Shown here: positions 27,001 to 33,000 of the stretch, piece after piece
Layout of the letters: each line of letters begins with the position of its first letter
How positions within the stretch are numbered: the first letter of the stretch is position 1
Source of the DNA: a virus
Lineage: Duplodnaviria > Heunggongvirae > Uroviricota > Caudoviricetes
IMG/VR virus record: IMGVR_UViG_2897352509_000007
Length of the DNA: 64,000 nucleotides
Strand: one strand, 5' to 3'
Made by a program: the position numbers

Positions 27001-30000
27001 CCTGGCTGAGTTTGTGGCGCTGATTTCGGAAAGCGGGGCCAATCCATTTGGCCTGACGGTGGATGCTGTGATGGAGGAGTATCGCCGCTGGCGTAATGAG
27101 TCCTGGCGATATAACGGAAGCGACAAATATCCGTGGCCTCAGCCTGTGCTGTATCACATTTGCCTCGAGATGCGTTCAAAGGGGATTGAACGCCAGATGA
27201 CCGAAGGGGAATTAAAACGGCTTGCAGAACGGCAGCTGACGAAATGGGCAAAGCATGTTAGTAACGGCCTGAGCGTTCCGCCAGTACGGCGACAACTGGC
27301 GGCACCAAAACGCCCGTTGGGACCAACGCCAATTGAGTTGCTGAAACAGGAGTATGAACGCCGGAAAGCGGCTGGTTTTGTCTGATTTGAGAAGTAATTT
27401 TTATCCGGAGGAAATTTTAATGGGAACCGTATTGCATGCACTGAAAGCGATGGGTAAAGCCAATTCTGTTGAACTGGCGGCGCGGCTTGATATCAGCCGT
27501 GAAGAAGTTCTCAACGAACTGTGGGAACTCAAAAAAAATGGCGTTGTTGATAAAACGGGTCACACCTGGTTTCTGGCTGGTGAAGGTGAATCCGGGGTAA
27601 CCGAAGAACAGCCAGCACAGTCTGAAGTACCGGATGTGCTGACCGGGGAGGTCGAACAAAAAGTTACTGCGGACATGATGATTGAGTTTATCTGTCAGGA
27701 TGGGGCTAAAACGTGTGAGGAACTGGCGGATAAGTTCGGTGTTAGCATTCGCAAGGTTGCTTCCACGTTGGCGGTCGTAACAGCAACGGGGAGCCTGGCA
27801 CGCGTAAATCAGAACGGTAAATTTCGTTACTGCATACCGGGCGCTGATTTACCGGCAGAGCCGGAAGCTGCATCGGTAACGGAAACCGATGGTAAAGCCT
27901 TTCCTCAGCCAACAGGTGTTGCGTTACCAGTCCGGGAAGCGGAAACACAGGAAGAAATAAAAACTGAAAGTGTGGCGGTCACAGTGCAGTCACAGCCGTT
28001 GTTCACCAGAAAACATCCGGATGGTCTGATTTTACCATCGCTGCATGTGGCTAACCGCGAGCTGCGCCGGGCAAAAGGTCAGGTTCAGAAGTGGGAGCGT
28101 GTCTGCGCCGCGCTGCGGGAGCTGAACAAGCACCGGGATATTGTTCGGCAGATTGTCGATTCATCCGGTCGTATTGTGTCGGAAAAGTGATTGCCGGAGG
28201 CGCTTATGGCGAAACCTTTTACACACGAACAGCGTGAAGAACTGAAGGCCCGAATTATCGGGCTGGTACGCAAAAATGAACGCATGACGATATCACAACT
28301 GGAGAGAGCGACGGGAGCAGGCTGGCATTCAGTCAGACGTTGCCTTGTGGATGTACTGGCTTGCGGCGATTTATACATGCCCGGTAAATACGGTGTTTTT
28401 ACATCAGAACAGGTGTATCGCGTATGGCGTAAGGCAGCGGAGAAAACAACCGACCAGACATTGATTCGAAAGTTACCAGACGGAGAAATACGCCGCTACG
28501 ACAGACAACAGAACATAATCTGTGGCGAGTGCCGGAAGAGTGAAGTTATGCTGCGTGTACTGGCGTTCTATCAGGGCAATTTTCAGGAGGCGGTATTGTG
28601 AGTGAATTAGCTATCAGGCTTCAATTGTCGCTGGCATTCACATCAAAGGAGAAGAGCATGGAAATAAAACCAGAAGATGAGTTAAGCAATATCGTTTTAT
28701 TTCCGGTAAAAGAGGATGACCCACGTAATCAGGTTAATTTTCTTTATGAGCCATCGGAAAGAGCATATTGTCATCACGCCTCTGTTCGGGTTGACGAAAA
28801 AGAGCGTCAGGTCCGCTGTAAAATCTGCGGTGCAGTTGTGGAGCCATTTGACTGGATGCTCTCTGTGGCGAAAAGAGAAACCAGACTGGCAGATGATGTA
28901 AGGATCTTGCGCCAGGAGGAACGGGAAAGGCGGAGAAATATAGAAAAGCTAATTCAGATTGAGCGTAACGTGAAAGCGCGGATACGCAGGGTGACAAAAT
29001 CCAGAACTGAATAATTAAATTTAGCTCTGTTAAAAATTTAATCCTTAACCGGAGGTATATCAATGTCAAACGCACAGAAAGTTATTAACGCTGAAAAATA
29101 TAACGAGTGGGTGAAAAAGTTCTCAGAGCAGATTTTTAAAATTACTGGCGACGAGAATGCGGCAAAAAATGAATTAGAGCCGTGGACACCTGAAGGTGTC
29201 GACCCAAATTATTGCTGGTGGGATGTTGATCCAGTTGATGCTGCAAATGAAGCTATGAGTTATCACAACGATTAATGTCAGGAGGCCGCCCGAAAGGGCG
29301 GTAATGAAAAGTGACTGAATTAACCAAAGAGAAATTAATCGAAGAAGCCAAATTAAAAATAGCGATTGCGAAATGCTACCCCAATTCAGGGATGGCACGG
29401 GTAGAGGGCGAGTTATTCAAAATTGCACTGGCATCGCTGGAAGCAGAACCGATAGCGTGGGAATGCGGTGAAAACATAATCCTGTTTAACCCTGACACAG
29501 TTGAAGCATACGCAAAACGTGCGGAAATATCACCTAAACCACTATTCTCCGCGCCGCCAGCGCTGGTAGTGCCTGATAAGTTGCCGCGTGAATACAGAAA
29601 CGGTTGGCCTCTTGCGTATAGTGATTATGCTGAAGGCTGGAACGACTGCCGCGAAGCCATGCTTCAGGGAGATAAATCATGATTAATCGTATCAAGCTGG
29701 AGCACATCCTCGAATATGCCAGGCAGCAGAGGCATATTGGTCAGCATTGTAAAATTCCACCAGGAGATATGGTTGAAATCATGGAGATTGCCATGCGCAA
29801 GGCTGGCAATTCTCCGGTAACTCCGGATGGTTGGATAAGCTGTAGTGAGCGAATGCCGAATACCAAAACAGCCGTTCTTGTTGCCGTGGAGTTTGACAGG
29901 AAAGGTGACTGGCGAATGAAATTGGCTACTTACATCCCGGGGCATCCTGACGCTAATGATGGGTGGATAATTCCTGGTGCGTCGTGGAAACCGTCACACT

Positions 30001-33000
30001 GGATGCCGCTACCAGAACCGCCGCAGGAGGTGCGCCAATGATCTGGCCTGAAGCCTTTGCAATTACAGGCGTTGCTATAGCTATTGATTTTTTAGTATAT
30101 GTTATTTGTCGGTGGGGGTAAAAACGTTCGCCGGGATTCACACCAAAGGAGGGAATATGTCGGATGATATTTCACTGGCAATGGAAGGTGCGCTGGCTGT
30201 TATTGCTGTTGTGGGCGTTTACTGCCTGGTTGTGTTTTTGATGGATCGACTAGGGAACTGAATTCATTACGATATGGGAATTCCCATATCGGGTAAAAAC
30301 GGTTTGCGGTAAAGCGAGAGTTAAGTAGAATTGCTGCGGGTGCTTGAGGCTATCTGCCTCGGGCATGAACACCAACGGCAGATAGAGAAAAGCCCCAGTT
30401 AACATTACGCGTCCGGCAAGACGCTTAACATTAATCTGAGGCCATATCTATGCTCTACACACGTAGGTTAGCCTCTTACGTGCCGAAAGGCAAGGAGAAG
30501 CAGGCTATGAAGCAGCAAAAGGCGATGCTAATCGCCCTGATCGTCATCTGTTTAACCGTCATAGTGACGGCACTGGTAACGAGGAAAGACCTCTGCGAGG
30601 TACGAATCCGAACCGGCCAGACGGAGGTCGCTGTCTTCACAGCTTACGAACCTGAGGAGTAAGAGACCAGGCGGGGGAGAAATCCCTCGCCACCTCTGAT
30701 GTGTCAGGCATCCTCAACGCACCCGCACTTAACCCGCTTCGGCGGGTTTTTGTTTTTATTTTCAACGCGTTTGAAGTTCCGGACGGCGCCGGAATAGAAT
30801 CAAAAATACTTAAGTAGCGCGCAGGGAGAAGAGGGATGGACCCCGAACAGGGGAGTGCTATTTATCTGGAAGGATTCTGTTGATGAGAATCGAAGAATTA
30901 CGTGAAATTTTTAGTGAAGATGGCCTCTATACTGTGCGCGTTGAGAAGGGCGCTATTGTCAGCCACTGCCGTATTAAATGTTTACAGTCTCAACAAAGGA
31001 AGAGTGGAGCTGCGTTAATTCATTTTGTGGATGGGCTTGTGACGGATGGTTTTATTTTGCGTGCAAATGAATTTGTCACATCGTTGCCGTCTCTGAAAGA
31101 AGCTGGGATTAAGGCTGGTTTTTCTGCTTTTGAAGATTAGTGAATTCATCTACAATTCAGCGCAGGGCTGAACCCCTGTTGAGTAACACTGTGCCACCGG
31201 AGAAAGCCGATGGCGCAAAATTCCAGACTACACAATTCTGATGATTCTGCCGTCTTTGCCAGCAGGCGCGGACGGTGTTTTCACGCATTCAAGTCTGAAT
31301 GGTTCCAGCACCCTCCATGCACTGCAGAACAGGCCGAATGGCTGATTCATTCTTACCGCAGGCGCGGGTTCGAGGTTAAGAAAGCTCTCAGTCTCGACTA
31401 TCGGCACTGGATAATCTCTGTCAGGCTCCCTTACTCCGAACGGCCACCGCGTCCGTCCCGCACATTCCAGCAACGGATCTGGAGGTAATGTGCGGGTATT
31501 ACTTCGACCTGTTCTGGTACCGGAACTCGGTCTGGTTATCGTTAAGCCAGGCCGTGAATCAATGTCAGCATTCCATAACGGCAGAATACTGGTGGAGCCG
31601 GAACCAAAAAGCATGCGAGCTCTGCCGTCCGGGGTTGTACCTGCCGTTCACCAGCCGCTGGCGGAAGATAAATCACTACTGCCATTTTTCAGCGATGAGC
31701 GGGTGATCCGTGCTGCGGGTGGCGCTGGTGCACTGTCTGACTGGTTATTACGTCACGTGAAATCCTGCCAGTGGCTACACGGTGATTATCATCACAGCGA
31801 AACCGTCATTCACCGTTACGGTACCGGCGCGATGGTGTTGTGCTGGCACTGCGACAACCAGCTGCGGGAGCAGACATCTGATTCACTGGATCAACTTGCT
31901 CAACAGAATCTGGCCGCCTGGATGATTGACATCATCCGTCACGCAATGAATGGCGCACAGGAGCGGGAATTATCTTTGGCTGAATTATCCTGGTGGGCGG
32001 TCTGCAATCAGGTGGTGGATGCACTACCTGAGGCTGTATCGCGTCGTTCGCTGGGATTACCAGCGGAAAAAATCTGCTCGGTGTACCGCGAAAGCGACAT
32101 CGTACCGGGAGAACAGACCGCCACCAGCATACTGAAGCAGCGCACAAAAAATATTGCGCTACCGCCTCACACCCACCAGCAACAAAAATCACCACAGGAA
32201 AAGACGGTGGTAAGCATCACCGTTGATCCAGAGTCTCCGGAATCTTTCATGAAGCTGCCTAAACGTCGCCGCTGGGTTAAGGAGAAATACACACGTTGGG
32301 TTAAGACACAGCCGTGTGCGTGTTGTGGTAAGCCAGCCGACGATCCGCATCACCTGATTGGTCATGGTCAGGGCGGAATGGGGACAAAATCTCACGATAT
32401 TTTCACGCTACCGCTGTGTCGGGAGCATCACAACGAGCTTCATGCGGATCCGCTGGCGTTCGAAGAAAAGCATGGTTCTCAGGTTGATTTAATTTTTCGT
32501 TTTCTTGATCACGCCTTTGCAACCGGCGTGCTCGGGTAAAAGAGGTGACTGATGCTCATAGATTTGGTTTTACCTTACCCGCCGACGGTGAACACTTACT
32601 GGCGACGCCGTGGCAGCACATATTTTGTATCAAAAGCCGGGAAGCGTTATCGCCGGGCAGTGGCGCTTATTGTTCGCCAGCAGCGACTGAAATTAAGCCT
32701 GTCCGGACGGCTGGCAATAAAAATTATTGCAGAGCCACCGGATAAGCGCCGCCGCGACCTGGACAATATCCTGAAAGCACCGCTGGATGCGCTGACGCAC
32801 GCGGGGTTGTTAATGGACGATGAGCAGTTTGATGAAATCAATATTGTACGTGGAAAGCCAGTATCTGGTGGACGTCTGGGGGTGAAGATTTACCCCATAA
32901 TGCTTGAAGGGCAGGTCAAAAAATGAAACTGGAAGATTTACCGAAATACTACTCCCCAAAATCCCCTGGCCTGACCGATGCATCGGCCTCAACGTCAAAA

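Follow-up and report, generated by a model that had tools for sequence, protein, structure and literature searches.

The stretch of viral DNA analyzed here (class Caudoviricetes, IMG/VR record IMGVR_UViG_2897352509_000007), referred to throughout as the window, is 64,000 nucleotides long and carries a block of six co-directional genes, named g1 to g6 below, between a P-like replication gene and the gene for the Q antiterminator. The element is a Rac/Qin-type lambdoid prophage of Escherichia coli O157:H7, as judged from the gene content of strain EC4115 and from Rfam matches to DicF, sok, STnc100, and AgvB, and the segment from 27300 to 30300 is 100% identical to O157:H7 genomes, for example, those of EC4115, TW14359, and SS17. 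A first-pass annotation of the window had placed the six genes in the equivalent of the lambda nin region, which their position between P and Q confirms, and had proposed the genes as candidates for undescribed functions in anti-defence or host takeover. The six genes are as follows.

27420 to 28190, plus strand: g1, a YdaW-family protein of 256 amino acids (Pfam DUF1627; phrog_630, E = 6e-131; ratio of nonsynonymous to synonymous substitution rates [dN/dS], 0.26)
28206 to 28601, plus strand: g2, a Ren homolog of 131 amino acids (DUF977, 241 bits against a cutoff of 22; phrog_142, E = 1.7e-43; dN/dS, 0.08)
28658 to 29014, plus strand: g3, 118 amino acids (phrog_1621, E = 8e-54; dN/dS, 0.23)
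29063 to 29275, plus strand: g4, an acidic protein of 70 amino acids, with an isoelectric point (pI) of 4.4 (phrog_4659, E = 3.7e-50; dN/dS, 0.15)
29311 to 29682, plus strand: g5, a modular protein of 123 amino acids with a GTG start (phrog_5117, E = 2.6e-50, also phrog_660 and phrog_60; no Pfam match)
29679 to 30041, plus strand: g6, 120 amino acids, a two-helix N-terminal module of its own being followed by DUF551 at the C terminus (amino acids 46 to 116)

All six are real protein-coding genes. Each open reading frame (ORF) is preceded by a Shine-Dalgarno motif, each matches a PHROG family with an E value between 1e-43 and 1e-131, and dN/dS values of 0.08 to 0.26, calculated against alleles from other contigs, indicate purifying selection. 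Together they cover positions 27420 to 30041 of the plus strand at a coding density of 94% and coincide with the RefSeq calls made for EC4115 by the Prokaryotic Genome Annotation Pipeline (PGAP), so the co-directional run that had been outlined from the window stands. Two of its start coordinates required revision. The g1 gene starts at 27420 rather than 27421, the latter being out of frame with 11 stop codons and the former yielding the 256-amino-acid protein of PGAP. The g3 gene more probably starts at ATG 28658, giving 118 amino acids, than at GTG 28598, since the phrog_1621 profile aligns only from residue 21 of the long form, since the homologs of Yersinia, Erwinia, and Kluyvera, and fused forms too, open at the position that corresponds to MEIKPEDE, and since the 60 nucleotides upstream are a junction sequence that is also found before unrelated genes. 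A shared translated leader beginning at GTG 28598 was considered and rejected, as a frame that stays open over 20 codons is not beyond chance. The genes had also been described as overlapping or abutting, which is true of g5 and g6, which share an ATGA overlap, and of g2 and g3 only if the GTG start is used, but not of the others; with the ATG start of g3, the intergenic distances from g1 to g6 are 15, 56, 48, 35, and -4 nucleotides.

The intactness of these genes bears on whether they could be decaying remnants of a defective prophage that have no current function. The prophage does carry a frameshifted exonuclease gene, and a homolog of g5 is annotated as a pseudogene in Stx2a_WGPS6. However, all six ORFs are intact, with ribosome-binding sites and the low dN/dS values given above, the same genes are carried by isolated, propagating phages, and the exact g1 protein is present on approximately 1,000 contigs, all of which makes decay barely credible.

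The first-pass annotation had recognized nothing among the six apart from a DUF551-like C terminus. Three of the ORFs (g1, g2, and g6) in fact pass Pfam gathering scores, identifying them as DUF1627/YdaW, DUF977/Ren, and DUF551 proteins, respectively, and g3, g4, and g5 fall into uncharacterized families that are defined by PHROG only. The genes are thus not undescribed: every one belongs to an existing family, YdaW and Ren are named relatives, and the exact proteins are found in RefSeq. Searches of NCBIfam and PADLOC returned nothing specific for the six, PADLOC giving only weak hits at the level of the helix-turn-helix (HTH) for g1 (Csa3/CARF HTH; E of at least 9e-06) and nothing for g3 to g6. 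Sequence and profile searches of the PDB with g1, g3, g4, g5, and DUF551 found no relatives. RgdR, a known prophage regulator of O157, was also considered and is unrelated.

A conserved YdaW-Ren pair and a variable hotspot

The g1 protein contains two winged-helix domains (approximately amino acids 4 to 50 and 85 to 135) together with acidic/proline-rich linkers and a C-terminal helical segment, and it matches Pfam DUF1627 with 281.4 bits against a cutoff of 28.1. Over amino acids 1 to 154, comprising both winged helices, it is 60% identical (E = 4e-61) to YdaW (b1361) of the Rac prophage of E. coli K-12, and it likewise lies behind replication genes of the ydaU/ydaV type, a synteny seen in both K-12 and Rac-SA53. 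The K-12 protein differs in having only 186 amino acids, being C-terminally truncated and lacking the DUF1627 helical segment that is present in g1. The intact phage Rac-SA53 shows the same layout as the window, with ydaU, ydaV, and a "ydaW" gene (253 amino acids) followed by lygF, rac19, ead, and further genes. The second winged helix of g1 is weakly Ren-like (phrog_142, E = 5e-06; hhalign, E = 0.0012). All sequences returned by a homolog search with g1 were at least 93% identical to it, and hence no deep alignment could be built.

The g2 protein, whose counterpart in Rac-SA53 is labeled lygF, is a remote homolog of lambda Ren. Both proteins match phrog_142, annotated as a Ren-like exclusion protein, with E values of 1.7e-43 for g2 and 1.6e-41 for Ren, and BLASTP links them directly (E = 2e-06). 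Alleles of g2 align with Ren from end to end, and g2 shares with it an N-terminal winged helix and the invariant C-terminal motif ECRxSxxMxRVLA. By position, both are early genes of the pR operon located 3' of P. There are also differences, in that the two proteins are only 29% identical, g2 has an insertion of approximately 30 residues, Pfam DUF977 matches g2 and not Ren, and g1 intervenes between P and g2 within the same operon and region. When a profile of the Ren family was searched against the PDB, only weak winged-helix matches were obtained, confined to the N-terminal 60 residues.

The surroundings of g1 were examined by scanning IMG/VR with the g1 protein, which yielded 80 loci, 58 of which also extend to a conserved right-hand anchor. 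In all 80 loci g1 lies behind replication genes, whatever the replication module. What follows g1 is highly variable: among the 58 anchored loci, g2 is present in 45, g3 in 23, g4 in 3, g5 in 7, and g6 in 9, and all six genes occur together in a single locus. The g2 alleles fall at approximately 100, 94, 62, and 50% identity. From the end of g1 to the right anchor, the distance ranges from 268 to 4,849 bp, and some loci pass from g1 directly to the right border, which consists of two hydrophobic ORFs of 27 and 34 amino acids, hok/sok, DUF968, RusA, and Q. The suggestion that this is an accessory position that varies among related prophages was borne out by the other cargo, which includes a Dcm-type C5-methylase paired with an NgoMIV restriction endonuclease, QueH, another small methyltransferase, HNH, DUF4406, and DUF7167 proteins, coiled-coil proteins of the Ead_Ea22 family, an IS5 insertion sequence transposase, and several small acidic proteins. 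A scan of species-representative genomes found four loci, all in Escherichia, a single-protein query of this kind reaching close relatives only.

The genes are common in E. coli. A megablast search of 5,426 complete E. coli genomes gave the following numbers of genomes, first with any match and then with a match covering at least 80% of the query.

g1: 2,749 (51%) with any match; 1,553 at 80% coverage or more
g2: 1,125 with any match; 468 at 80% coverage or more
g3: 1,678 (31%) with any match; 1,678 at 80% coverage or more
g4: 603 with any match; 602 at 80% coverage or more
g5: 764 with any match; 132 at 80% coverage or more
g6: 2,458 (45%) with any match; 65 at 80% coverage or more
whole 3-kb block: 4,059 with any match; 84 at 80% coverage or more

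The gap between partial and full matches seen with g5 and g6 fits intragenic recombination at module boundaries.

These data can be set against the view that the genes are housekeeping accessories of replication or recombination, equivalent to the nin genes of lambda. The block resembles the lambda nin region in its position between P and Q, in belonging to the same operon, and in consisting of genes that would be dispensable. The invariable attachment of g1 and g2 to the replication module, at its 3' end, would suit such a role, as would the published description of Ren as "likely involved in DNA replication" and the occurrence of g3 homologs in Yersinia and Erwinia prophages, where they are flanked by NinG/NinH and Q in a nin region of the classical kind. 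However, none of the six matches lambda NinB to NinI, so the block is not made up of known nin housekeeping genes: no BLASTP match with an E value below 0.1 was obtained against lambda NinB to NinI and the lambda exo-xis proteins except that of g2 to Ren, and the Pfam Nin families had no match among the six genes. The sequence relationship with the lambda nin region is limited to Ren, the content of the window consisting instead of Rac-type genes and genes from the pool shared with Ea22. In addition, g2 to g6 are missing from many similar prophages, some of which have g1 and then the right border, and recombination functions are encoded elsewhere in the prophage by the DUF968 and RusA genes. 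We therefore consider a housekeeping role for the block quite unlikely.

Exchangeable cassettes and their junctions

The remaining four genes behave as small cassettes. The g3 protein has a disordered acidic N terminus with the motif ELSN[IV]xxFP, a zinc ribbon of the form CxH-x13-CxxC, and a basic helix of 55 residues that is almost invariant across genera (RRxNIEKLIQIE[RK]NAKARIR). An AlphaFold2 (AF2) model of g3 had a predicted local distance difference test (pLDDT) score of 72.5 overall and of 85 to 95 within the helix; a Foldseek search with this model found nothing with an E value below 0.1 in the PDB and BFVD, the best match being the zinc ribbon of TFIIB, which was not significant. The zinc finger of the DksA/TraR type was tried because lambda Orf73 is an RNA polymerase binder with a finger of that type, but Pfam zf-dskA_traR did not match g3, which has a CxH...CxxC arrangement and not four cysteines. 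In two database proteins (P0122 and P0125), the g3 module is fused behind coiled-coil Ead_Ea22 N termini. Two chimeric database ORFs were also observed, one joining a C-terminal fragment of g1 to g3 (P0153) and the other joining an N-terminal portion of g3 to a C-terminal portion of a protein of the g2 type (P0160); these indicate deletion or recombination between neighboring cassettes in some genomes. The g4 family is very narrow, with seven matches among 1.84 billion representative sequences, two of which are spurious acidic repeat proteins, leaving approximately five that are genuine.

The g5 and g6 proteins are both modular. The N-terminal module of g5 (MTELTKExLI...LASLEAEP) is common to many mosaic early proteins, including those of phrog_660 and phrog_60, and the family as a whole is a chain of shuffled submodules. 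The position of its GTG start is occupied by ATG in two other loci (L063 and L065). In one protein cluster (C10), a g5-type N terminus is fused to DUF551. The g6 protein matches Pfam DUF551 over amino acids 51 to 116 with 79.1 bits against a cutoff of 22, and among its homologs this part is nearly invariant, preceded by more than 10 unrelated N-terminal modules, some of them Ead_Ea22. PF13935 and PF04448 occur together in several database proteins (P0031, P0067, P0090, and others), in which DUF551 is fused to Ead_Ea22. The AF2 model of g6 was poor (pLDDT, 56), the homologs being too much alike, and it was left out of the fold search. A programmed -1 frameshift from g5 into g6 was examined and dismissed, as the g5 stop codon is not preceded by a slippery heptamer and g6 has an N-terminal module of its own.

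Both halves of the g3-to-g6 segment were also found, whole or in part, in the leftward exo-xis regions of Stx phages. In Shiga toxin (Stx) phage ArgO145, DNA 92% identical to g3 and g4 lies between two Ead/Ea22-like genes 3' of exo, and in Stx2a_WGPS6, DNA 99.5% identical to g6 and a form of g5 (g5') is flanked by an Ead/Ea22 gene and a gene for an antirepressor. These copies, together with the fusions described above and the Yersinia and Erwinia positions, place g3 to g6 in a pool of modules on which both exo-xis and nin regions draw. Such a pool is in keeping with the published picture of Ea22 as a mosaic protein with portable domains, in which the Stx variant V2 carries DUF551. The relationship to the Ead/Ea22 mosaic proteins (PF13935) has limits. 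Elsewhere the g3 and DUF551 modules serve as C-terminal domains of those proteins, and g3-g4 and g5'-g6 DNA adjoins their genes, whereas in the window the modules are free-standing and unfused, in a rightward operon and not between exo and xis. PF13935 itself is absent from g3 to g6, the Pfam search having found it in none of the six genes, and there is no similarity to the solved C-terminal domain of lambda Ea22 (g5 against lambda Ea22, E = 5.1).

Several short elements mark the borders of these cassettes.

28598 to 28657, plus strand: g2/g3 junction sequence, containing the alternative GTG start and the Shine-Dalgarno sequence AAGGAG
28628 to 28651 and 30128 to 30151, plus strand: two copies, 88% identical, of a 24-nucleotide direct repeat, TCGCYGGSATTCACAYCAAAGGAG
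approximately 29280 to 29307, plus strand: portable intergenic element just 5' of g5, AGGAGG-GCCGCCC-GAAA-GGGCGG-TAATG, comprising a Shine-Dalgarno sequence and a 7-bp GC hairpin with a GAAA loop
30038 to 30121, plus strand: unannotated hydrophobic ORF of 27 amino acids, MIWPEAFAITGVAIAIDFLVYVICRWG, whose ATG overlaps the g6 stop codon (ATGA) and which is not in the PGAP table
30157 to 30261, plus strand: hydrophobic protein of 34 amino acids, annotated as hypothetical and followed by the hok/sok module at 30338 to 30662

The copies of the 24-nucleotide repeat lie directly 5' of the start codons of g3 and of the 34-amino-acid ORF and thus bracket the exchangeable segment from g3 to g6. An exact 18-mer of the portable element occurs in 23 of 88 loci, invariably on the plus strand. 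The sequence on its 5' side is of two kinds, at least four different genes follow it, and the RNA fold of the element is more stable than that of shuffled sequence (z score, -3.3). It is not an intrinsic terminator, having no U tract. The stem and loop loosely resemble a hairpin of the boxB type. In the window, the ATG that follows the hairpin opens a mini-ORF of four codons only, and the GTG start of g5 at 29311 lies inside it. Recombination at linkers of this kind is the classical explanation for lambdoid mosaicism, and the g3-to-g6 cassettes would likewise be swapped by recombination, probably at such short conserved junctions bearing ribosome-binding sites.

The conserved right border begins with the 27-amino-acid ORF, which was found in 29 loci as 12 variants, all with an ATG start, 11 of which encode 27 amino acids and one 25. 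The ends of the ORF are conserved (M[TIN]WPEAF...ICRWG) and its hydrophobic core is variable. It appears to be a true small membrane protein overlooked by PGAP.

Possible roles of the two layers

Taken as a whole, the block would be an accessory segment, variable in content, within the early rightward operon and built of two layers. The first and conserved layer would be formed by g1, with its tandem winged helices, and g2, directly behind any replication module, and the second by the exchangeable g3 to g6 cassettes drawn from the shared pool of early genes. Within the block, promoter predictions did not exceed background and strong terminators are absent, the first of these being at 30731, after hok, and we infer that all six genes are cotranscribed with the replication genes after induction. 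They would be dispensable to the core functions of the phage. We propose that g1 and g2 are binders of DNA or of partner proteins that protect the early replication of the phage against systems of the abortive-infection type, and that g3 to g6 are Ea22-like modulators of the lysis-lysogeny decision or of host physiology. The identities of the genes and the structure of the hotspot are near-certain, and we assign this entire picture, proposed roles included, a probability of roughly 0.6; the functional part taken separately is tentative.

The proposal for g1 and g2 draws on two analogies, one to Ren and Rex and the other to ydaW and RcaT, a retron toxin. In classical genetics, ren allows escape from Rex exclusion. 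Rex proteins were found to interact with both O and Ren in a two-hybrid assay. In an overexpression screen from which only RacC was followed up, five prophage genes, K-12 ydaW among them, relieved the toxicity of RcaT, the toxin of retron-Sen2; otherwise, YdaW is entered as a predicted regulator of the MarR type with no assigned function. The proposal for the cassettes draws on their relatives. Ea22 has been reported to be pro-lysogenic, and other exo-xis genes affect induction. The yfdS gene of prophage CPS-53, which shares DUF551 with g6, has been linked to sensitivity to H2O2 and to the inhibition of chromosomal replication initiation that overexpression of yfdQRST causes. The N-terminal part of YfdS is unlike that of g6, however, and the H2O2 and replication-initiation phenotypes are those reported for YfdS.

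A number of considerations weigh against these roles. The RcaT phenotype of ydaW is a match from an overexpression screen that was not pursued, reported solely for the truncated K-12 allele, and a DNA-binding protein could have acted indirectly in that assay. The homology between g2 and Ren is remote, at the 29% identity given above. As for the cassettes, g5 fails the Ead_Ea22 Pfam model and has no match to lambda Ea22, the link of g3 to g6 with Ea22 is one of shared modules and neighborhood and not of homology to the lambda C-terminal domain, and for g4 it is neighborhood only. The structural work was not decisive, given the low pLDDT of the g6 model and the absence of a significant match in the g3 fold search.

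The same observations could also be read with all of the genes modulating only phage development and host physiology (lysis-lysogeny bias, cell cycle, and stress), as do the exo-xis genes of lambda and Stx phages, and with no part in immunity. The nearly identical g3-g4 and g5'-g6 segments within exo-xis regions favor this, as do the pro-lysogenic effect of Ea22, the influence of other exo-xis genes on induction, and the oxidative-stress and replication phenotypes of yfdS and yfdQRST; g1 and g2, as winged-helix proteins, could be plain regulators. This reading leaves the Rex-Ren link and the ydaW/RcaT result unexplained, and turnover as extreme as that of this locus is more typical of genes driven by conflict than of regulatory genes. 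It is possible, if doubtful.

The hotspot could also be an anti-defence island, all six genes being dedicated anti-defence functions directed against different immune systems of the host or of other prophages. The first-pass annotation had named the genes as candidates for anti-defence or host takeover. The position is hypervariable, and relatives carry restriction-modification genes, orphan methylases, and QueH there. The Ren family is connected with the Rex system by the two-hybrid data and by classical genetics, ydaW blocked a retron toxin in the screen, g4 is small and acidic, and an invariant DUF551 behind many N-terminal modules is compatible with variable targeting. Yet none of the six resembles a characterized anti-defence protein in Pfam, in PHROG annotations, or in the PDB, and the characterized relatives of the second layer, Ea22 and YfdS, have developmental or physiological phenotypes. 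Literature searches by PHROG identifiers, and for Ea22 or DUF551 with anti-defence terms, found no such link in the papers covered. We regard the island as improbable. The same low standing is given to a bolder version, in which YdaW and Ren would form a conserved anti-abortive-infection module and the cassettes, including DUF551, a combinatorial kit of inhibitors directed at different immune systems from either early operon. An anti-defence role is a possibility whose support, modest and indirect, is confined to g1 and g2, as in the two-layer reading that we prefer.

With respect to novelty, a known type of mosaic accessory region is redescribed here with its parts more clearly named, as YdaW, Ren, and modules of the Ea22 pool. 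If a defined role were established for any of these common prophage genes, many hypothetical proteins would be annotated at once. It would also help to explain the coexistence and induction of co-resident lambdoid prophages in pathogenic E. coli.

Flanking genes and other features of the prophage

In the EC4115 annotation, the leftward genes encode an integrase, an excisionase, the frameshifted exonuclease, dicB, ydfC, and a DicA-like repressor. The rightward genes that precede the block encode Cro-like and YdaT-like proteins, a DnaT-like O protein, and replication protein P, and on the 3' side of the six genes are a small hypothetical gene, hokD, two more hypothetical genes, DUF968, RusA, and the Q antiterminator. 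The following features were noted outside the block.

26177 to 26373, plus strand: three to five iterons of the AAAGACACCCAAAAACGG type, within the O-like (DnaT-like) gene
26924 to 27385, plus strand: replication protein P-like gene (PGAP; BLASTP to lambda P, E = 2.9e-06), with the O-like gene upstream
27360 to 27376, plus strand: weak terminator-like hairpin with a T run, inside the 3' end of the P-like gene and just 5' of g1
35424 to 35483, plus strand: tRNA according to Rfam (37 bits) and PGAP (tRNA-Met)

The iterons are probably the replication origin of the prophage, as in lambda. The N-dependent terminators of lambda-type phages occupy the position that corresponds to the hairpin at 27360 to 27376. 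ARAGORN predicted no tRNA in the whole window, and the feature at 35424 to 35483, which adjoins STnc100 and AgvB, may be a divergent or degenerate phage tRNA. The gene annotated as frameshifted in the left arm of the EC4115 prophage (L001, positions 1175 to 3618) contains an exonuclease domain, and given this frameshift, the prophage is probably defective in one or more early functions. In the phage collection, the match of greatest coverage was PP818812.1, "Actinobacillus phage vB_Apl-pPE4," with 85% nucleotide identity over the region of the replication genes and g1; the host label Actinobacillus is unexpected for lambdoid DNA of the Escherichia type.

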